From the NCBI GenBank assembly GCA_964582615.1, contig CAZORP010000003.1, positions 2,091 to 66,090 on the forward strand: a stretch of 64,000 nt of DNA. Reading direction: 5' to 3'. Numbering within the stretch: the first letter of the stretch is position 1; each line of letters starts with the position of its first letter. Positions 1 through 8,014 of the stretch are shown piece by piece. This DNA comes from an uncultured Gammaproteobacteria bacterium. GTDB taxonomy: Bacteria; Patescibacteriota; Patescibacteriia; UBA9934. The position numbers and the translations under genes are program-made. Below the pieces are notes generated by a model. It was not told the origin of the DNA, did no database searches, and saw nothing but the letters and a program-made list of their open reading frames with translations.

Positions 1-1100
1 TCTTCAAGGGAAGCAAAGTGCATGTTGGAAACCTAACCATTACCGAAGATGTTCTTACGAGAGTGTTTCAAGATCTCGATTCAGCCCCTCTTGAAAACTT
101 AGAAAAAAACCTTGCCGACGTATACTTGGGAGATGTTTATTTTTCCTGCAACTCCATGGAAAGTTTGTTTCGAGATGAGAATATTGAAAATCTCCTCAAT
201 AGCATCTTCCAAAATAAAACCTTCTACGGATCCGTCACCATCTTTCCTCACAGTGCGAATGCTCGAAATATCGGCTTCCGCAAAGGACTCTCTTGTACCG
301 TATTTGGAAGCAAGATTGTCCTATATTCGGGAGTGTATTTTTCACAACAACTTTCCCTGAGCGGCCTATGCCAGCACATTGACCTCGACGGTGTTCACGC
401 GTATTACGGATATCATCACGAATTTAACCCTAATGATTCCCTTTCTCTAAATCTTAAAAATATCTCCACGCACAACCTGCGTCTTCATCGCGGATTTGAT
501 ATTTCAGGAATTCGTAGCGTCACTTTTCCCCAAAAAATAACTTCAACCGTTGTTCTTTCGCACGACTATCTCAACAATCTCCCACCATCCACCGACTTAA
601 CCATCGTTTACACACAAGGTGAGTCACCAAAAAATCCCCTGACTATCCCAGAGGAGGTTACACAGTTTACGGCATTACAAATAACAAACCTTGACAACAT
701 CGCACTTCCCCAAAATCTCGAACGGCTCTGTCTGAGCATCACCTCAGCAAAAAGAGTACTTTTTCCACCCCATCTGAAGATACTCGATCTGTACCACCTC
801 GACACCTTTGAAGGGCTACTTCTTCCACCGCATGCGCAACTTGTCTATAACGAACCCATGAGAAAAGAGCTTGAAGAAGCCATGAAAGGCGGACGCGACA
901 TCCTGCAGGAATGCCGTGATGCGTGGCTTGAAGAGTATCAAAGGACACGATTCCATGGCGTATTTCCACCAGAAGAGGGCACACTGCCAAAGTCCATCCC
1001 CCTTCTCATGCCAACTCCCCCGGAAGAACCGAGTGTAGTCAAAAGAATCGTAACTTCAGCAAAAAACTTATGGAACAGGTTCTTTAGAGAGAAAAAATAG
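1..1100 (+). CDS. Hypothetical LRR-like protein, 5' end outside the window; first of two tandem paralogs
   Basis: The ORF track starts at a GTG at 18, but the frame stays open to base 3. The N-terminal residues KGSKVHVGNL align to an internal KVHFGDL segment of the downstream 514-aa paralog, so the gene very likely continues upstream. It shares the conserved C-terminal module GRDILQECRDAW..EYQ.TRF.GV.P.EEG..P..IPLL and LRR-like L..L.L motifs with ORF 1126..2670. Confidence 0.55.
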   Translation, partial: FKGSKVHVGNLTITEDVLTRVFQDLDSAPLENLEKNLADVYLGDVYFSCNSMESLFRDENIENLLNSIFQNKTFYGSVTIFPHSANARNIGFRKGLSCTVFGSKIVLYSGVYFSQQLSLSGLCQHIDLDGVHAYYGYHHEFNPNDSLSLNLKNISTHNLRLHRGFDISGIRSVTFPQKITSTVVLSHDYLNNLPPSTDLTIVYTQGESPKNPLTIPEEVTQFTALQITNLDNIALPQNLERLCLSITSAKRVLFPPHLKILDLYHLDTFEGLLLPPHAQLVYNEPMRKELEEAMKGGRDILQECRDAWLEEYQRTRFHGVFPPEEGTLPKSIPLLMPTPPEEPSVVKRIVTSAKNLWNRFFREKK

Positions 1101-1125
1101 CAATGACAAATCTCACTCACTGCCT

Positions 1126-2670
1126 ATGCGCGATCCTTTTTCTCAACCAAAAAAACCAGAACAGCTTCGCTTTGAACATTCAGACCATTCCCCTGCAAAT
1201 AAACATCCTGAAATTTTTGAAGGATTTGTTAAGAATTTCTTTAAAGGCGCGGACGCTGAGATGGCCGCCGTGTACCAAGATGCTCTTATTGAGAAATTTA
1301 TTAAAAATTCAAAAATCTTTACAAACTTCATTTTAGGAGACCCCTTCTGGACGAATTGGGCCTTTTCTCGAGAAGATCTCATTCAAGCTTTTGATGACAT
1401 CTTTACCTTGGCAAGTATCTTTGAACGATACAGATCTTCTAACCTCACAACAACTCAATTATCACTCACAGAGCAAGAACTTCGCGCGATCTACACCTAC
1501 AAAAAAACACTTTTCTTCTTCGATTGTACATTACAAAAAAACGTGCATTCGAGTGCACGCGAAAGAATGAGGAACTTCTTCTTAAATTTTATCAAAAACC
1601 AACATCAACCGCATAAGGAAAATATTGCCAAGATTTTTAAATGCAAACCCGATGAGGTAAGCACTGATCTCAACGGTTTTTTTCAAGGAAGTAAAGTTCA
1701 CTTTGGAGATCTTGCCATCGCCGAAGTCTCATTGGTAAACAATAATACTCACGCGGAACATTCCTCTACCTATAGACAAAAAAGCCCATTTGCACGCACA
1801 ATTCTAGGAGATGTCTCCTTTGCCCCCAGGGGGTTACTCAATGAGAGCATGCGTATTTCTGCAAGAGACCTTTTTTCTGATGTTTTTCAAGATGCAATAA
1901 TTTACGGATCTTCGAAAATAGCATTCAGCTACCCGTTCGAGACGTCTTCAAATCTCTCAAGACATACATCATTCACACTTTTTGGCCAATATCTCGATAT
2001 CTCATTTTCTTCGCAAGCGAAAGAAATGCTCTCTGTACGGGGCTTTTGTTCAAACACCACTCTAGCACTTTCTCTCCAGCATGAAGGTGCGGTTTTTAAT
2101 CTACAAAACTTCTCGACACACTCACTCGCATCCCTCACAACGTTATCACACGTCATTCTTCCAGCGAGCACCGTAAATAATGCTGCCATTCTCTTTGAAA
2201 AGAGTAACAATCTTCCAAAGGCAAGGAGTCTGTCAGTAGTATTTTTTGAGGAAAGCCTCAGCGAACCTCTTAATCTACAAAATAGCATCACAGAATTTCA
2301 CGCCGAAAATCTGCATGATCTTCGAAATATCTCACTCCCATCACAACTCGAGAGTCTTACGCTTGGAATTACGCAAGCAAAAAATGCATTCTTTCCCCCT
2401 TATCTTAAAAAACTAGACCTTCCCAAGCTCACAACCCTTGAAGGTCTCTTACTTCCACCACACGCAGAATTCACATCTAATACCGCCATTAAAACACTCA
2501 TCTCAACAGCGAAGACACAAGGCAGGGATATCTTACAAGAGTGCCGAGATGCATGGATGAAAGAGTATCAAACAACGAGATTTGATGGGGTCTATCCAGA
2601 CGAGGAAGGCGCCATACCTGAACACATTCCACTTCTCCAACCTTTACGCTCAAAACCCGGGCAAATATAA
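1126..2670 (+). CDS. Hypothetical LRR-like protein (514 aa), second tandem paralog
   Basis: A long ORF whose C-terminal ~120 aa are nearly identical in motif order to the C-terminus of ORF 18..1100 (LTLGITQAKNAFFPPYLKKLDLPKLTTLEGLLLPPHA, then GRDILQECRDAWMKEYQTTRFDGVYPDEEG). Leucine-rich-repeat-like segments. No signal peptide is evident. Confidence 0.6.
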   Translation: MRDPFSQPKKPEQLRFEHSDHSPANKHPEIFEGFVKNFFKGADAEMAAVYQDALIEKFIKNSKIFTNFILGDPFWTNWAFSREDLIQAFDDIFTLASIFERYRSSNLTTTQLSLTEQELRAIYTYKKTLFFFDCTLQKNVHSSARERMRNFFLNFIKNQHQPHKENIAKIFKCKPDEVSTDLNGFFQGSKVHFGDLAIAEVSLVNNNTHAEHSSTYRQKSPFARTILGDVSFAPRGLLNESMRISARDLFSDVFQDAIIYGSSKIAFSYPFETSSNLSRHTSFTLFGQYLDISFSSQAKEMLSVRGFCSNTTLALSLQHEGAVFNLQNFSTHSLASLTTLSHVILPASTVNNAAILFEKSNNLPKARSLSVVFFEESLSEPLNLQNSITEFHAENLHDLRNISLPSQLESLTLGITQAKNAFFPPYLKKLDLPKLTTLEGLLLPPHAEFTSNTAIKTLISTAKTQGRDILQECRDAWMKEYQTTRFDGVYPDEEGAIPEHIPLLQPLRSKPGQI

Positions 2671-2815
2671 GAATATCTGCAAGCCCCGGAAAGACTTTCT
2701 GGTTGCAACGTAATATCTTGACGTTTTTAGCTAAATCTGGCATACTTTTGCCACTTATTCACGAGGTGGTTGCTCCTTTCTTTGGAGATTCCACTGTAAA
2801 AAGTTCTCGTTTCTT

Positions 2816-3241
2816 ATGGCAAAGAAAATCAAAGCCATTTTGAAGGTGCAGGCAATTGGTGGCGCAGCTACCCCAGCACCACCACTTGGTCCGGTACTTG
2901 GTCAGCAAGGTGTACCAATTCAACAGTTCGTATTGGAATTTAACGCCGCAACGCAAGATCGTCGCGGTGAAGTCGTTCCTGCGGTTATCACCGTGTACGA
3001 AGATCGAACATTTTCGTTCATCCTCAAAACCGCTCCTGCGTCTGAACTCATTAAAAAAGAGCTCGGAATCAAAACAGGATCCGGAAAGCCAAACCAAGAA
3101 AAGCTTGGAAAGCTTACCAAGGAACAGCTCAAGCGTGTTGCTGAAAAGAAACTTCCCGACCTCAATACCAAGGACGTTGCAAAGGCAATGAAGATCATTG
3201 CAGGAACTGCACGTCAAATGGGTGTTGATGTCGAGGTATAA
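2816..3241 (+). CDS. rplK: 50S ribosomal protein L11
   Basis: MAKKIKAILKVQAIGGAATPAPPLGPVLGQQGVPIQQF is canonical L11 N-terminal sequence, at 141 aa. A TTGACG-17-CATACT promoter-like element lies at 2717-2745. Confidence 0.95.
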   Translation: MAKKIKAILKVQAIGGAATPAPPLGPVLGQQGVPIQQFVLEFNAATQDRRGEVVPAVITVYEDRTFSFILKTAPASELIKKELGIKTGSGKPNQEKLGKLTKEQLKRVAEKKLPDLNTKDVAKAMKIIAGTARQMGVDVEV

Positions 3242-3269
3242 TCTTCACATCACTCATCATCCTTTCTCT

Positions 3270-3683
3270 ATGGCACTTTCATCATCTCGCCCGGGAACGT
3301 CACTCATTCTGCGCATGTACTTTGCCGTCATCGCAGCAGTAACGCTCTTTACGCTCATGTTTGGTGCCATAAACCTTCTCACCGTTGGCTTGCGAATGAT
3401 CATTCCCGGAGCAAACCAACCCGAGTGGGGCCTCGAAGATTGCAACATTACTACCCCACGGTACGATGTTCCAACCGTCGACGGCGAAAGTGTTCCTGTA
3501 ACTTCTCCAGAAGAACTCAAAGCATCATGCGAAGCACGAAATGCGGATGTTCTTAAAAACTGGAAGAGTCAACAACTTAGCGAGCTCGTTCAAGATATCG
3601 CGCTCTTCATTGTTTCGCTTCCTCTCTTTGTCGTACACTTCCGAGTTGTCTACAAAGACTGGAAAAAGGAACACGAAGATTAA
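3270..3683 (+). CDS. Hypothetical small membrane protein in the unusually long rplK-rplA spacer
   Basis: A 161-aa ORF (137 aa from the internal Met at 3270) with two hydrophobic segments (AVIAAVTLFTLMFGAINLLTVGL and IALFIVSLPLFVVHF). It fills the 487-nt gap between rplK and rplA. No homology is recognised, and there is an antisense ORF competitor. Confidence 0.35.
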   Translation: MALSSSRPGTSLILRMYFAVIAAVTLFTLMFGAINLLTVGLRMIIPGANQPEWGLEDCNITTPRYDVPTVDGESVPVTSPEELKASCEARNADVLKNWKSQQLSELVQDIALFIVSLPLFVVHFRVVYKDWKKEHED

Positions 3684-3728
3684 TCTTTACGTGGGAGTTC
3701 TCAAGAACGCTATAACCACCATTTTTCT

Positions 3729-4403
3729 ATGCACAGCAAACGTTTCTCCGCCCTCAAGGCCGCAGTGGTACAAAAAGTTTCCCCAGAAAAAGGCATTGCT
3801 TCAGTAAAGGCAAATGCAACTGCAAAATTCGACGAAACTATTGAATTGCACTTCTCTTTGGGTATCGATCCAAAGCAGGGCGATCAACAGATCCGTGGAA
3901 CTATCACGCTTCCTCACGGAACGGGAAAGACCAAGCGCGTTGCAGCATTCGTTGACTCGGCAAATGAAGCCGCAGCAAAAGCCGCAGGTGCTGACATTGT
4001 TGCAACTGAAGAAACGATTGATGAAATCGTTCGCACAGGAAAGATCGACTTCGACGTCGCTGTTGCCGTACCTAGCATGATGACAAAGCTCGCTAAGGCG
4101 GCAAAGGTTCTTGGTCCTCGTGGTTTGATGCCAAACCCTAAGACCGATACCGTTAACCCCAACGTTGCAAAGATGATCGCTGAACAAAAAGCAGGAAAGA
4201 TCTCTTTTAAAAACGACAACACGGGTAACGTTCACATGATCGTTGGAAAAGCTTCTTTTGAAGAATCCAAGCTCATTGAAAATGCTCTCGCGGCAATTGA
4301 CGCTGTACGTAAAGTAAAGCCTCAAAGCGCAAAGGGTATCTACTTCAAATCCGCAACGGTGACTTCCACCATGGGACCAGCCGTACGTATCGACGTCGCG
4401 TAA
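3729..4403 (+). CDS. rplA: 50S ribosomal protein L1
   Basis: 224 aa. The segments ETIELHFSLGIDPKQGDQQIRGTITLPHGTGK and GKASF are typical of L1. Confidence 0.95.
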   Translation: MHSKRFSALKAAVVQKVSPEKGIASVKANATAKFDETIELHFSLGIDPKQGDQQIRGTITLPHGTGKTKRVAAFVDSANEAAAKAAGADIVATEETIDEIVRTGKIDFDVAVAVPSMMTKLAKAAKVLGPRGLMPNPKTDTVNPNVAKMIAEQKAGKISFKNDNTGNVHMIVGKASFEESKLIENALAAIDAVRKVKPQSAKGIYFKSATVTSTMGPAVRIDVA

Positions 4404-4416
4404 AAATCCCCATAAA

Positions 4417-4452
4417 AACAGCCTCATTACGAGGTTGTTTTTATTTTTCTCC
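4417..4452 (+). terminator. Rho-independent terminator after rplA
   Basis: AACAGCCTC-ATTAC-GAGGTTGTT is a 9-bp stem with one G-U pair, followed by TTTATTTTT. Confidence 0.6.
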
Positions 4453-4529
4453 GAAACACTATTTTCCTGCAGGAGGTGGGGATTTTTTCATTGTATGAAA
4501 AGTAACGGTTTGCTAAGGTTCCGAACAAT

Positions 4530-5636
4530 ATGGACTTCTCAACGCTTTCGGGGGCATTAGCGTATCAACACATTCGGTCACTCATTGATGCTCGACATAT
4601 CTTTGGAGCATCGCCAACACACCTTCAGCCCTCCTCCCTAGACCTCAGCCTCTCCCAGGAAATTTACCGCATGCGAGGATCGTATCTTCCAAGAACTGGT
4701 GAACGTGTCCGCACCCTTATTAAAGAAGGTTCTCTTTACGAAACCTCATTTAATGAACCCCTCGAACTCAACAGTATCTACTTAGTTCGCCTTAACGAAA
4801 CCCTCGTTCTTCCACCTTCCATTTACGCTTTTACCAATAACAAGTCCTCAACGGGAAGAGTCAACCTCCAAACACGCCTGCTCCTCGATGGCGTAAGCGC
4901 TTTTGACAGTATCCCCGCAGGTTACACCGGCGAGCTTTGGCTTGAAATTATTCCAAAATCTTTTCCTGTAAAACTCTGTCCCGGGGAACGACTCAATCAA
5001 ATTCGATTCTTCGCTTCAGATACACGACTAAGCACCGAAGAGCACCTTCAATTTCATGCCGAAGAAGGATTTCTCTTTGATGCTCAACAAAAAAAGGTCT
5101 TCTCACCTCAACACGCACGAGCATCAGGAATCACCATGTCAATTGATCTTACATCACAAGATATCATTGGCTACGTATGCAGACCAACAAATGGGAAGGT
5201 TCTTGACTATCAACGAAGGGACTACGCTTCACACGACTTTTTTTCTCCCATTTTTCGAACAAAAAAAGAAGAACTTGTTCTTCAGAAAGAAGACTTTTAT
5301 ATTCTCGTTACCAAGGAAGGTATTCGCGTACCTCCTCACTACGCCGTTGAGATGGCGCCGTATGACGTAGGAAAGGGTGAATTTAGAAGTCATTATGCGG
5401 GCTTTTTTGATCCCGGATTTGGCTATCGTGCAGATGGAAGTGTCATGGGAAGTCCGGCAGTTCTTGAAGTCTTCACCCATGATAACGATTTCATTCTCAG
5501 AGATGGCCAGCCGATTTGTACTATGGTGTACGAAAAACTCTCCGCACTACCTGAGGTATGCTACGGAGAGCAGGGTTTGGGAAGTAACTACTTTGCCCAG
5601 CGAGGACCAAAGCTTAGTAAGCATTTTTCCTCCTAA
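4530..5636 (+). CDS. dcd: Long-form 2'-deoxycytidine 5'-triphosphate deaminase (DCD, PF06559-like)
   Basis: A 368-aa protein with the architecture of the approximately 360-aa dCTP deaminase family, not the short dut-like Dcd. It is placed with thyX, dut and tmk. Confidence 0.6.
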   Translation: MDFSTLSGALAYQHIRSLIDARHIFGASPTHLQPSSLDLSLSQEIYRMRGSYLPRTGERVRTLIKEGSLYETSFNEPLELNSIYLVRLNETLVLPPSIYAFTNNKSSTGRVNLQTRLLLDGVSAFDSIPAGYTGELWLEIIPKSFPVKLCPGERLNQIRFFASDTRLSTEEHLQFHAEEGFLFDAQQKKVFSPQHARASGITMSIDLTSQDIIGYVCRPTNGKVLDYQRRDYASHDFFSPIFRTKKEELVLQKEDFYILVTKEGIRVPPHYAVEMAPYDVGKGEFRSHYAGFFDPGFGYRADGSVMGSPAVLEVFTHDNDFILRDGQPICTMVYEKLSALPEVCYGEQGLGSNYFAQRGPKLSKHFSS

Positions 5637-7477
5637 GCAAGGCCTTTTTCAAGAAGCTTCTGCGACTGACGAGCTTCTGCGGCGGCGCGTGCCCAAGGAT
5701 ATTCTTGATAATCAACAAATTGCAAAAGACCAGCATCTTGTATCCATGGCGCACGTTCATGGATACTCGTTGTCATTTTCTGACATATTCTTCGATAGTC
5801 AGGATGGCCTTGAGGGATGGTTCGTAGCTCAAGAAGATGCTGTGCTTCACGAAGAGAAAATCCCATGGTAAATCGGATATGATGTCCAAAAAGCACGCAA
5901 TACTGTGCAAGTTCCGCACCAAAATCCTTCTCAAGTGCGCGATAGAGCTCCTTAACTTCAGCAACAAGAGCCCAAACCTCTCCCCCACGACCAAGAGCCT
6001 TAATATCTTCAGGAAGTGTGAAGCCTAAAAATGGCTGAAGATATTGGCGCTGTTGCGTGAGAATTCTGTGACGATGGAGGTCACGAAAGACTCCAAAATT
6101 TGCCACAATATCAAATGTGCATGCATATCCATGTTCCCATCCTCGACCATAGCGATCTCGTCGAGAGGTACGAGAAGAGAAATCGCGAAGACGCTGAAGA
6201 AGGATCTCTACGGTGTCTTTCTTGAGACGCTCCACTATTTGAGAAAATGAGACTCGTGCAAAAGGAAAGTACAGTGATGCGAGAATGTGTGCCATACCAT
6301 CCCTCCCCGACTGTAAAAGATTTGGGATATCCAGAGGAACAACCTCTTCTTCAGCGTGTTCAGAAAATATCAAGAACTCGGGATAGTGCTCAAGAAGGTG
6401 ATTTTTTGCAACTTTTTCTTCATTTTTTGCAAGAATATCACCATTAGGAGATGCTCGCTTAACATACTTTGGAATAAGCTCGTTAAGTGTCGAGTGAAGA
6501 CGCTGTCCAATATCTTGGTACTCGTGCATATCTTCATGACTATATAGCCGCTTAAGCAGGTGTTCGTACGTGCGACCATTTGCCACCATGGCAAGATTCG
6601 TCAGCGTTGCGGCGGGAAGCACGACACGGGCAGTATCACATGCTCGCGTCTTAATATCGAACTTATATACTCGTCGAAATTCCTTTTGTTCTTTTTCTTC
6701 GGTCAAATCTGCGAGTTTATAGAGCGTTTTATCTTGTGGCTTTACCGCGTACTCAGCTTGATCGAGAGGCTTAAGTGTTTCGTAATGCACCACTAATTCA
6801 TCAACAAGCTTGGTGTACAACAAGAATGCTCGATCGAGCACGCGCTCATACGCTTCCCCGTGCGAGGAAGCCATAATGCGGGGATCTCGATAATACGCAA
6901 ACTTTCCCGTGACTAAATCACGATCATTGTACACGATATATCGACTGGACTGCTCAATAAAGCTTCCCAATCGACGATCTTCAATGAGTTTTGACGCGAG
7001 ATTACTTACCGAGTTAAAAAGCACCGTTGCCGTTTCAAGCTCCTGAACCGAATCGTCACCGTACTGCAAAAGAATGCGTTCAATGATTTCATCAAGCTTT
7101 TTTACCTTCAACTCTCCAACGGGAATACCGAGCTTTTCACTTTCTTCAGGAGTTTGCACGAGAAACTCATTAACCAATACGTCAACGACTGTACCCTGAG
7201 CACGAGACTGTCGAGCAAGCATGGCGCCCGTCAATCCCGAAAGCTTCTTAGTATTTACCGCGGTAACCGTGCTTGTTGGCGTAATAAATGCCGCCGAAGC
7301 CGCAAGATCGTATCCTTGCTTCTTGAGTGTTGCACGATACGGAAGCGTGACGCCATCGCCATACGCAACAACCTGCTCCTGCTGAATGGATCCATCTTGC
7401 AGATAGGTTTCAAGGGCAAATGTAGCTAAACGATCATCTTCACCAATCTTATGAACGCGAGAATTTTCATGAGGCAT
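5633..7477 (-). CDS. thyX: FAD-dependent thymidylate synthase ThyX, long tandem-domain form
   Basis: 614 aa. The C-terminal half carries RHRILTQQRQY (RHR of the ThyX motif) and GHHIRFTMGFSLREAQHLLELR. The N-terminal half has a second ThyX-like fold (SSRYIVY, ARVVLPAATLTNLAMVANGRTYEHL) with a degenerate RHR (EDRRLGSF). The gene converges on dcd with a 4-nt overlap. Confidence 0.7.
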   Translation of the reverse strand: MPHENSRVHKIGEDDRLATFALETYLQDGSIQQEQVVAYGDGVTLPYRATLKKQGYDLAASAAFITPTSTVTAVNTKKLSGLTGAMLARQSRAQGTVVDVLVNEFLVQTPEESEKLGIPVGELKVKKLDEIIERILLQYGDDSVQELETATVLFNSVSNLASKLIEDRRLGSFIEQSSRYIVYNDRDLVTGKFAYYRDPRIMASSHGEAYERVLDRAFLLYTKLVDELVVHYETLKPLDQAEYAVKPQDKTLYKLADLTEEKEQKEFRRVYKFDIKTRACDTARVVLPAATLTNLAMVANGRTYEHLLKRLYSHEDMHEYQDIGQRLHSTLNELIPKYVKRASPNGDILAKNEEKVAKNHLLEHYPEFLIFSEHAEEEVVPLDIPNLLQSGRDGMAHILASLYFPFARVSFSQIVERLKKDTVEILLQRLRDFSSRTSRRDRYGRGWEHGYACTFDIVANFGVFRDLHRHRILTQQRQYLQPFLGFTLPEDIKALGRGGEVWALVAEVKELYRALEKDFGAELAQYCVLFGHHIRFTMGFSLREAQHLLELRTIPQGHPDYRRICQKMTTSIHERAPWIQDAGLLQFVDYQEYPWARAAAEARQSQKLLEKGLA

Positions 7478-7579
7478 AGAGCATGAGTTGTTGCGACTGT
7501 ACGAGGAGCCTGTCCTTCGGTCAAACCTCTGTGTGGATAGGACATTGCAAAAGTTTCCTTACCTGAGAAAATATCCCAT

Positions 7580-8014
7580 ATGGAACTCCCCTTTCGTCGT
7601 CTCTCGCCCCATGCATCTTTGCCAACGTATCAAACCGAAGGATCTCTAGGTTTTGACATTGCAATCCTCGAATCCGTCACCTTACAACCTCAGGAACGTG
7701 CACGCTGTAGAACCGGACTTTGTGTTGCGGTACCAAAGGGATATGGTCTTTTTCTTTTTTCTCGATCAAGTGGCGGCAAACGAGGAATCATCCTCGCGAA
7801 TAGCGTTGGTGTTATCGATAGCGACTACTGCGGGCCAAACGATGAAATCCTCCTTATGCTGTACAATATTTCTCAAGAATCTCTAACCATCCAAGCTGGA
7901 GAACGCGTCGCACAAGGCGTTCTTCTTCCCGTTGCACAAGCTCGTATCATCGAGCCAGAGTCGTGGGAAGCCAACCGTGACCGTGGAGGCTTTGGAAGTA
8001 CCGGGCTACTATGA
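7580..8014 (+). CDS. dut: dUTP diphosphatase
   Basis: 144 aa. GSLGFDIAI, RSSGGKRGIILANSVGVIDSDYCG and the C-terminal RGGFGSTG are dUTPase motifs. Confidence 0.9.
   Translation: MELPFRRLSPHASLPTYQTEGSLGFDIAILESVTLQPQERARCRTGLCVAVPKGYGLFLFSRSSGGKRGIILANSVGVIDSDYCGPNDEILLMLYNISQESLTIQAGERVAQGVLLPVAQARIIEPESWEANRDRGGFGSTGLL

Follow-up and report, generated by a model that had tools for sequence, protein, structure and literature searches.

Short-repeat leucine-rich repeat (LRR) proteins, which include the LRR_5 proteins of the BspA type, FNIP proteins, the YopM/IpaH/SspH/SlrP proteins, the internalins, and Leptospira LIC11098, are built from units of ~20–22 aa in which an LxxLxL core is followed by LP. 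The window analysed here, a 64,000-nt stretch of DNA from an organism belonging to the Patescibacteria (CPR), begins with two adjacent genes upstream of rplK whose products likewise contain repeats of this kind. In comparison to type III secretion (T3SS) effectors, however, the window proteins have neither such an architecture nor a NEL ligase domain, and unlike the internalins they carry no Sec signal or wall anchor. The genes also lie within a modified version of the canonical secE-nusG-rplK-rplA order. All four of these genes are there, in their usual order and all on one strand, but ~3.95 kb with three paralogs parts nusG from rplK, a DUF5671 membrane-protein gene lies between rplK and rplA, and rplA is followed by dcd instead of rplJ-rplL-rpoB.

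The first of the two genes, ORF-A (3..1100, + strand), is open from the window edge in the frame from nt 3 and comprises the C-terminal 365 codons plus stop of the paralog P0002, the first 189 codons lying upstream of the window. Full-length P0002 is 554 aa, of which ORF-A encodes residues 190–554; residues 1–140 are encoded at 100% identity at 1526..1945 of a short contig of the same organism (L001). The second gene, ORF-B (1126..2670, +), is complete and encodes the 514-aa paralog P0001. ORF-A and ORF-B are 36% identical over the window portion (337 aa, E 4e-63, BLASTP), and the full-length proteins are 39% identical over 514 aa (E 1e-107, BLASTP). ORF-A additionally has a tail that is absent from ORF-B (1014..1097, +), consisting of a Pro/Glu-rich stretch and then a basic part (TPPEEPSVVKRIVTSAKNLWNRFFREKK) that appears to be amphipathic. 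The original prediction of tandem paralogs is upheld, as the two genes are on the same strand and 39% identical at full length. If their similarity were an assembly duplication artefact, for which the adjacency of similar genes speaks and nothing more, then near-identical nucleotide sequences would be expected. Instead, nucleotide identity is 47% overall and 66% inside the C-terminal block, and blastn between the two genes yields only two matches, of 72 and 90 nt, at ~70% identity. Furthermore, two sequencing runs, assembled independently, gave this same arrangement with identical locus sequences, and it is also present in an NCBI contig of 101,279 bp that carries P0001, P0002, and a third paralog, P0004. 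An artefact is refuted, and ORF-A and ORF-B are real, distinct genes.

The LRR character proposed for these proteins is confirmed by three consecutive Leu-rich units of ~20 aa per paralog, located at 666..842 in ORF-A (+, P0002 residues 411–469) and at 2296..2472 in ORF-B (+, residues 391–449; FHAENLHDLRNISLPSQLES / LTLGITQAKNAFFPPYLKK / LDLPKLTTLEGLLLPPHAEF). The units follow an L-x-L-x-x-L...L-x-L-P spacing in which the Asn/Cys ladder residue is not conserved, the position being occupied by Thr or another residue on inspection. Towards the C-terminal end the repeats are easy to make out; in the middle they are degenerate, and approximately residues 200–390 are without recognisable repeat. 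No member of the Pfam LRR clan (LRR_1, 4, 5, 6, 8, FNIP) scored above its gathering threshold, and none matched ORF-B; the best match was LRR_5 on ORF-A (E 0.045, 14.1 bits vs a cut-off of 27.7). A model of P0001, built from only two sequences and with a mean pLDDT of 61, has a helical N-terminal part, strands ~20 aa apart over residues 368–431, two helices, and a disordered tail. Foldseek returned nothing significant for this model, and many of the non-significant matches were LRR domains, including plant NLR LRR regions. The AlphaFold model of P0022, a member of the larger LRR family described below, has a pLDDT of 87.8, and an LRR solenoid fold may be transferred by homology from this modelled relative to P0001 and P0002; a single-repeat HMM derived from P0022 was too short to score the paralog repeats. 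Neither P0001 nor P0002 has a signal peptide, a hydrophobic N-terminus, a lipobox, or a membrane segment, and no 19-residue window exceeds a Kyte-Doolittle value of 1.2. Judged from their sequences, both are predicted to be soluble LRR proteins.

The two proteins share a conserved C-terminal module, at 891..1013 in ORF-A (+, P0002 residues 486–526; GRDILQECRDAWLEEYQRTRFHGVFPPEEGTLPKSIPLLMP) and at 2521..2643 in ORF-B (+, P0001 residues 466–506; GRDILQECRDAWMKEYQTTRFDGVYPDEEGAIPEHIPLLQP). A shared block of about 60 aa, almost identical between the paralogs, had been anticipated; the block exists, but it spans ~41 aa, of which 30 are identical (73%), including a run of 12 identical residues (GRDILQECRDAW). 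The same codon is used for only 11 of these 30 identical residues. In the P0001 model (mean pLDDT 61), the module is predicted to form a helix at residues 469–486 followed by a disordered, Pro/Glu-rich peptide. In an HMMER profile search of the whole collection, P0001 and P0002 were its only carriers, and metagenome contigs scanned with the module patterns [QG]GRDILQE and CRDAW[ML][KE]E contained no relative. A word-indexed search with the module alone gave one candidate but missed even P0001 and P0002, and its outcome is uninformative. The dN values between the two paralogs rise from 0.20 for the module through 0.41 for the clear repeats to 0.90 for the middle of the protein. No other part of the protein is under such strong constraint as the module, which is private to P0001 and P0002.

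Synonymous sites between P0001 and P0002 are saturated, and this saturation within the C-terminal block points to an old duplication under purifying selection, rather than to an assembly artefact or gene conversion. The LRR genes have a total GC content of 0.41–0.44 vs 0.477, while their GC3 (0.37–0.44) is within the window range (0.40 +/- 0.04). The lower total GC therefore reflects amino-acid composition and not recent import, and recent horizontal transfer was rejected as its cause. Both ORFs and the short third copy go back to an old tandem triplication of one gene that is specific to this species.

The layout upstream of the window was read from short contigs of the same organism, which were reached through P0004 and rplA, the contig index having no exact record of P0001 or P0002. 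On contig L001, secE (196..405) and nusG (408..953) are followed by a terminator-like hairpin with a T-run (963..991), by P0004 (998..1384), and by the start of P0002 at 1526. The complete order is thus secE, nusG, terminator, P0004, ORF-A, ORF-B, and the rplK promoter and leader. P0004 is 128 aa long and consists of the N-terminal domain only, which it matches at E 1.8e-14 in a profile search; it aligns to P0002 residues 7–120 at 39% identity over 123 columns (tblastn). The terminator-like hairpin abuts the start codon of P0004, the first gene of the array. The suggestion that the array occupies the place of secE-nusG is incorrect, as intact secE-nusG lie directly upstream and the array is inserted between nusG and rplK. 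Likewise, the proposed paralog expansion amounts to only three tandem genes, one of them P0004, and no further family copies were found in a collection of 15 billion proteins that includes this genome. The array has no recognised promoter of the sigma-70 type; candidates occurred only inside ORFs, at chance frequency. At its 3' boundary is a promoter-like site for rplK (TTGACG, 17 nt, TG-CATACT; 2718..2746, +), with equivalent TTGAC..TGGCAnnAT sites upstream of rplK in relatives. This is followed by a conserved, structured rplK leader (2747..2815, +), which has eight predicted pairs, five of them with compensatory changes, and which lies outside the array and delimits it. The rplK gene itself is at 2816..3241 (TIGR01632, E 2e-52). 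Separately, the nusG and rplA terminator hairpins have a loop motif in common; it was considered as a repeated element and dropped, with no further copies in the window.

The spacer from nusG to rplK is ~3.95 kb here; across 79 related Patescibacteria loci its median is 120 nt, and in 68 of them it is below 300 nt. Nine of the 79 have spacers of 507–1,764 nt, which contain other, unrelated genes. The ORFs of 60 aa or more in these nine were extracted; they look plausible in L005, L007, L009, L010, L013, L017, L071, and L081, and are low-complexity and doubtful in L039. None is related to the LRR trio. In related Patescibacteria, different and unrelated genes have thus come to fill the slot that runs from the nusG terminator to the rplK promoter and leader.

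Searches with whole P0001 and P0002, and with their split N- and C-terminal parts, against Pfam, NCBIfam, PADLOC, PHROGs, and the PDB yielded nothing above threshold, the matches (DUF7051, SEA, Stealth_CR3, a designed helical repeat, and MtN13) being noise. A word-indexed homolog search with P0001 found nothing beyond the two paralogs, a scan of genome contigs of GTDB representatives, among which the source genome evidently does not figure, found no relative with the paralog alignment, and a literature search on Patescibacteria and leucine-rich repeats found nothing relevant. Exhaustive HMMER searching of 1.84 billion representatives gave 24 proteins at E <= 0.001, namely P0001, P0002, P0004, and 21 weak matches whose best stretch is in the repeat region or the junction that precedes it; several of the repeat-region matches carry Pfam LRR_5, LRR_8, or FNIP. 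The junction motif of ORF-B (QPHKENIAKIFKCKPDEVSTDLNGFFQGSKVHFGDLAIAE; 1606..1725, +, residues 161–200) marks the start of the repeat domain and is common to a large LRR family. Against a junction HMM, P0001 161–200 and P0002 165–204 score 70 bits, both being in its seed, and family members outside the seed score 36–60 bits; the junction is present in 130 of the 142 proteins compared. An hhalign comparison of paralog and family profiles has a probability of 96.6% (E 5e-10, A1 columns 83–203). Thus, the description of the family as unrecognised holds for Pfam, NCBIfam, the PDB, PADLOC, and PHROGs, but the junction and repeats link it to the large LRR family.

What these proteins do can be considered in light of both their architecture and their location. 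The LRR solenoid would provide a protein-binding surface, and the C-terminal helix and peptide could be a docking or capping element for a common partner. With a binding solenoid and a docking element, the proteins would act as intracellular scaffolds or adaptors, or would be exported by a non-Sec route. They are likely to be accessory, outside the core functions of the cell, and to have no connection with the adjoining ribosomal genes. We consider it reasonably probable that the locus is an old, species-specific triplication of soluble LRR genes, with a private module and in a variable slot, whose role is that of a putative binding scaffold or adaptor; for the role itself, a soluble protein-binding scaffold is most likely. 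It is possible, but rather unlikely, that the proteins are instead secreted or surface effectors with which an episymbiotic CPR bacterium interacts with its host, as the original prediction hinted. In this case the LRR would bind a host protein, and the C-terminal module would serve as a signal for export or anchoring. The organism is a member of the Patescibacteria, and an attached life on other cells is common among CPR bacteria. The LRR fold predicted for the proteins is also that of YopM, SlrP, and the internalins. The genes are restricted to one lineage and occupy a variable slot, and the distant relatives P0005 and P0018 start with hydrophobic, signal-peptide-like N-termini on inspection. 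The most conserved part of the proteins is an acidic, proline-rich C-terminal peptide, and some secretion systems use signals at the C-terminus. However, a signal used for export in general should be found on many substrates and not on two proteins, the paralogs are without signal peptide, lipobox, or membrane segment, no secretion-system genes are present in the flanks examined, and no catalytic or anchoring domain, including NEL and LPXTG, was found with Pfam and NCBIfam. A broader proposal, which we regard as speculative and improbable, is that in this Uhrbacteria-like CPR clade the nusG-rplK spacer may be a dedicated cargo slot for repeatedly gained and lost, lineage-specific interaction genes, with the C-terminal helix and proline peptide as a new export or docking signal that delivers the LRR trio to a host cell.

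Alternatively, the genes could be remnants in decay, or ORFs that are spurious, within an intergenic slot that changes fast, and have no current function. This reading is very doubtful, as two ORFs of 514 and 554 codons remain intact despite saturated synonymous sites, constraint is uneven (lowest dN in the C-terminal module, highest in the middle), the two sequencing runs agree exactly, and GC3 is typical of the genome. It is nevertheless consistent with P0004, an N-terminal domain only, directly abutting the terminator hairpin, with an array for which no promoter was recognised, with the absence of the family from all relatives examined, and with slot content that turns over between genomes. 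The variable, island-like location of these LRR genes, together with the plant NLR regions among the non-significant Foldseek matches of the P0001 model, could suggest an anti-phage or immune module with the LRR as sensor, as in NLR-like systems. In this case, though, no NTPase, nuclease, TIR, or other effector domain is present, none of the three paralogs has a PADLOC match at E <= 1, and the neighbouring genes examined include none recognised as a defence gene, making such a function highly improbable.

Overall, the trio are real genes, and their products are lineage-specific accessory proteins of a rather ordinary type; LRR paralogs restricted to one lineage are common, and current understanding is not overturned. 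If the proteins are functional binders, then they are candidate species-specific interaction factors in the CPR/Patescibacteria, about whose cell-to-cell biology very little is known. The locus also shows that nusG-rplK, among the most conserved bacterial gene adjacencies, is a tolerated insertion slot in this clade. Additionally, the comparison draws attention to an unnamed LRR family of very large size (at least 1,479 clusters at E <= 1e-5) that has a confident model and an N-terminal domain for which no fold match was found.

In this large family, the source names given are all "hypothetical protein", apart from an uninformative "phage protein U"; examples include hypothetical protein A2223_02755 of Candidatus Falkowbacteria, a hypothetical protein of Candidatus Pacebacteria, and the modelled P0022. 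The neighbourhood of one member, P0042, on human-gut and other ENA/JGI metagenome contigs encodes RecD2, MutS, and a cellulase and is uninformative. Family members are built from an N-terminal domain of ~390 aa, a junction (..IFxCxPEQIS.T.EEAL.G...H.GDL.L, or in its longer form R..+.DLA.IF.C.PEQIS.T.EEAL.G...YHYGDL.L) immediately before the repeats, and 21-aa repeats of the form LxLxxLTSAEGLxLPxxIGGx. In common with the window proteins, they have the junction (..IFKCKPEEVS.T....G...H.GDL..) after an LT..ELR.IY helix region, and 20–21-aa LxLxxLT.aeGLxLP repeats. In contrast, they have 11 or more repeats where the window proteins have three clear ones, and they are without the C-terminal module. 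Only family columns 333–432 align to the paralogs, whose own residues 1–85 are without counterpart; the first ~330 residues of the N-terminal domain, including the invariant W143, R168, W265-C266, P297-R298, and E311, are missing from the window proteins. As this domain is mostly absent, the paralogs are relatives that share a module and not full family members. On sequence comparison, the window proteins are a derived offshoot of this large, uncharacterised bacterial LRR family, in which the last ~100 residues of the N-terminal region, the junction, and the repeats have been kept and a private C-terminal module has been added.

The two open reading frames at the start of the window, ORF-A (3..1100, plus strand, open from the window edge with its frame from nt 3 and its stop at 1100) and ORF-B (1126..2670, plus strand), were identified by a word-indexed protein search as residues 190-554 of a 554-aa protein (P0002) and as a 514-aa protein (P0001), respectively; the search with a paralog retrieved nothing beyond these two. 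They are 39% identical over their full length (E 1e-107) and lie upstream of rplK (2816..3241, plus strand), as in the original prediction of adjacent paralogous genes. One additional true relative, P0004 (128 aa), came from an exhaustive HMMER search in which a two-paralog profile was run against 1.84 billion representative proteins; it matches the N-terminal domain only (E 1.8e-14). The contigs of P0004 are Logan assemblies of SRR16481183 and SRR16481182 from the same organism as the window, and all three proteins are encoded on one 101,279-bp NCBI contig. On L001, a contig that encodes residues 1-140 of P0002 with 100% identity, secE (196..405) and nusG (408..953) are followed by a terminator (an 11-bp hairpin and a T-run, 963..991), P0004 (998..1384), a 141-nt spacer, and the start of P0002 (1526). 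The L001 map and the shared NCBI contig therefore establish the gene order secE, nusG, terminator, P0004, P0002, P0001, rplK promoter and leader, rplK. The array had been thought to sit where secE-nusG normally precede rplK; both genes are instead undisplaced, just upstream, and the array is an insertion of ~3.95 kb between nusG and rplK. The proposed paralog expansion holds as a tandem triplication and goes no further, with no additional paralog within the 64-kb window or in the protein collection searched. P0004 has its ATG inside the T-run of the terminator that follows nusG. Beyond the P0004 stop, within L001 998..1521, a 37-codon open reading frame (MNAFPNTIEQSPELQPQKKRGGLLNLITTALKKILS) bears a loose likeness, without statistical support, to the Pro/Glu-rich, basic-helix tail of P0002, and thus P0004 may be what is left of a full-length copy after an internal deletion.

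The P0001 and P0002 genes share 47% nucleotide identity overall in a codon-level comparison, and blastn between them detects just two stretches of ~70% identity, which rules out an assembly duplication artefact. Within the C-terminal block (P0001 residues 466-506, window 2521..2643; P0002 residues 486-526, window 891..1013; both plus strand), 30 of 41 residues are identical, just 11 of these 30 share their codon between the genes, and dS has reached saturation. Between the paralogs, dN rises from 0.20 in the block through 0.41 in the adjoining repeats to 0.90 in the mid-protein region. Together, the few shared codons, saturated dS, uneven dN and sparse blastn matches show that the duplication is old and the block under purifying selection; the codon divergence and saturated dS also rule out gene conversion there. 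Total GC of the array genes is 0.41-0.44, compared to 0.477 +/- 0.016 in 34 other genes, and their GC3 is normal (0.37-0.44 versus 0.40 +/- 0.04). Therefore, the low total GC stems from amino-acid composition, and recent import was rejected as its source. The tandem triplication is old and specific to this species, and one of its copies is cut down to the N-terminal domain.

Neither the whole paralogs nor their separated parts had a significant match in Pfam, NCBIfam, PADLOC, PHROGs or PDB sequences, consistent with the earlier description of the family as unrecognised. The HMMER search returned 24 proteins at E <= 0.001, of which 21 are weak matches that form two groups by best-scoring stretch. 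Members of the repeat-region group match in multiple stretches within profile columns ~300-477, most of them between 380 and 470, and carry Pfam LRR_5, LRR_8, FNIP or LRR_EndoS repeats. Junction-group proteins match at columns 162-204 with the motif AKIFKCKPEEVST..F.GSKVH.GDL, which in these proteins directly precedes long arrays of 21-aa repeats. A search with P0022, a junction-group protein and modelled representative, defined a large LRR family that has at least 1,479 clusters. It occurs on human-gut metagenome contigs as well as in MAGs of Candidatus Falkowbacteria and Pacebacteria, and is named in its sources only 'hypothetical protein' or, uninformatively, 'phage protein U'. Its members have an N-terminal domain of ~390 aa (invariant W143, R168, W265-C266, P297-R298 and E311), then the junction motif, and then repeats with the consensus LxLxxLTSAEGLxLPxxIGGx. 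In a profile-profile comparison, paralog columns 83-203 aligned with family columns 333-432 (probability 96.6%, E 5e-10). Given the repeat and junction matches and this alignment, the repeats of the paralogs appear to be genuine LRRs, as had been suspected, and the paralogs are derived relatives of this large uncharacterised family. They keep three clear 20-aa units (in P0001, FHAENLHDLRNISLPSQLES, LTLGITQAKNAFFPPYLKK and LDLPKLTTLEGLLLPPHAEF), and the repeat pattern degenerates upstream. The P0001 model is weak (pLDDT 61, built from two sequences) but agrees with the LRR reading: it has helices across 23-186, beta strands from 190 to 431 with ~20-residue spacing from 368 onwards, two helices (453-464 and 469-486), and a disordered Pro/Glu-rich tail. 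Foldseek found no significant match to this model, and many of the non-significant ones are LRR domains.

The C-terminal block consists of the second terminal helix (GRDILQECRDAWxxEYQxTRF) and a peptide that is extended, acidic and rich in proline (GVxPxEEGxxPxxIPLLxP). Outside the paralog pair, the block had no relative in the exhaustive protein search, JGI metagenome DNA, Pfam or PDB sequences, and by inspection of the P0022 C-terminus the large LRR family ends differently. P0002 alone has an extra 28-residue basic tail, which appears amphipathic from its sequence. Selection is strongest on the private C-terminal module that the two paralogs share.

A NusG scan of genome contigs gave 80 loci, nearly all from MAGs labelled Patescibacteria group or Candidatus Uhrbacteria, Magasanikbacteria, Falkowbacteria and similar, with 89% identity for the closest NusG match. 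Among the 79 loci having both nusG and rplK, the median spacer is 120 nt, and 68 spacers are shorter than 300 nt. Nine loci (L005, L007, L009, L010, L013, L017, L039, L071 and L081) have spacers of 507-1,764 nt, and six of them are among the 14 closest relatives. The ORFs of at least 60 aa extracted from these nine spacers have no mutual relationship and differ in kind: one has a hydrophobic, lipoprotein-like N-terminus, two resemble small membrane proteins, and further ones are soluble and lack any evident feature (the L039 ORFs are low-complexity and doubtful). The paralog profile matched none of them, nor any ORF within 8 kb of nusG across all loci. In all close relatives, rplK is preceded by a promoter-like site (TTGAC...TGGCAnnAT) and by a structured leader that is conserved; in the window these are located at 2718..2746 and 2747..2815 (both plus strand). 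Since the nusG terminator precedes the array and the kept promoter and leader directly follow ORF-B, the array fills a neutral gap between two transcription units, one that has received different cargo repeatedly in this clade. Its position beside ribosomal genes is probably incidental. The array belongs to an Uhrbacteria-like CPR bacterium, in which the slot between nusG and rplK is variable.

The leader, also present in L004-L028, has an outer helix (GUGG/CCAC) that encloses an internal loop (UUGC...GAAU) together with an inner hairpin that varies, with compensatory changes in five of eight predicted pairs. It looks like the L1-binding autoregulatory leader of the L11 operon, and had no Rfam 15 match at E <= 1. 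By eye, covariation extends to a further pairing, ACGAG/CTCGT, adjacent to the start codon. Between rplK and rplA (3729..4403) lies a DUF5671 membrane-protein gene (3270..3683, plus strand; 137 aa as called on L003, a contig 100% identical to window 2520..5901), whose position is kept in the closest relatives (L004-L009, L011, L017, L021 and others). After rplA, a nucleotide-metabolism gene cluster (4530..8014) stands in place of rplJ-rplL-rpoBC, and consists of a dCTP deaminase with two domains (368 aa), a ThyX of unusual length (614 aa, minus strand), and an ORF (7580..8014) that resembles dUTPase, judged by translation only. In this genome, the ribosomal and RNA-polymerase genes do not form their usual unbroken cluster. 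Among third-party MAG records, many with the title 'uncultured Gammaproteobacteria bacterium' (L004, L005, L010-L014 and other NusG-scan loci) have NusG, L11 and L1 that are 65-90% identical to those of this Patescibacteria genome, and some also carry the DUF5671 gene. These titles look like placeholder mislabels.

P0001, P0002 and P0004 have no hydrophobic N-terminus and no candidate membrane segment (maximum Kyte-Doolittle 19-residue mean of 1.2), which predicts soluble proteins that do not travel through Sec. The stretch from the nusG terminator to the array yielded no sigma-70-like promoter, and the few consensus matches fall within ORFs, as often as chance would give; any expression of the array may come from read-through or from a different class of promoter. 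The LRR surface would bind a protein ligand, and the C-terminal helix and peptide would cap the solenoid, dock a common partner, or both. Less probably, the array proteins are host-interaction effectors, a reading whose positive support is limited to the LRR fold and the way of life usually ascribed to CPR bacteria. Overall, the observation behind the original prediction is confirmed and its interpretation is partly supported. Three by-products, namely the slot of variable content, the large LRR family that has no name and the conserved leader of rplK, are no less useful than the array itself. LRR proteins are already known as a class; what is new here is the lineage-private terminal module.
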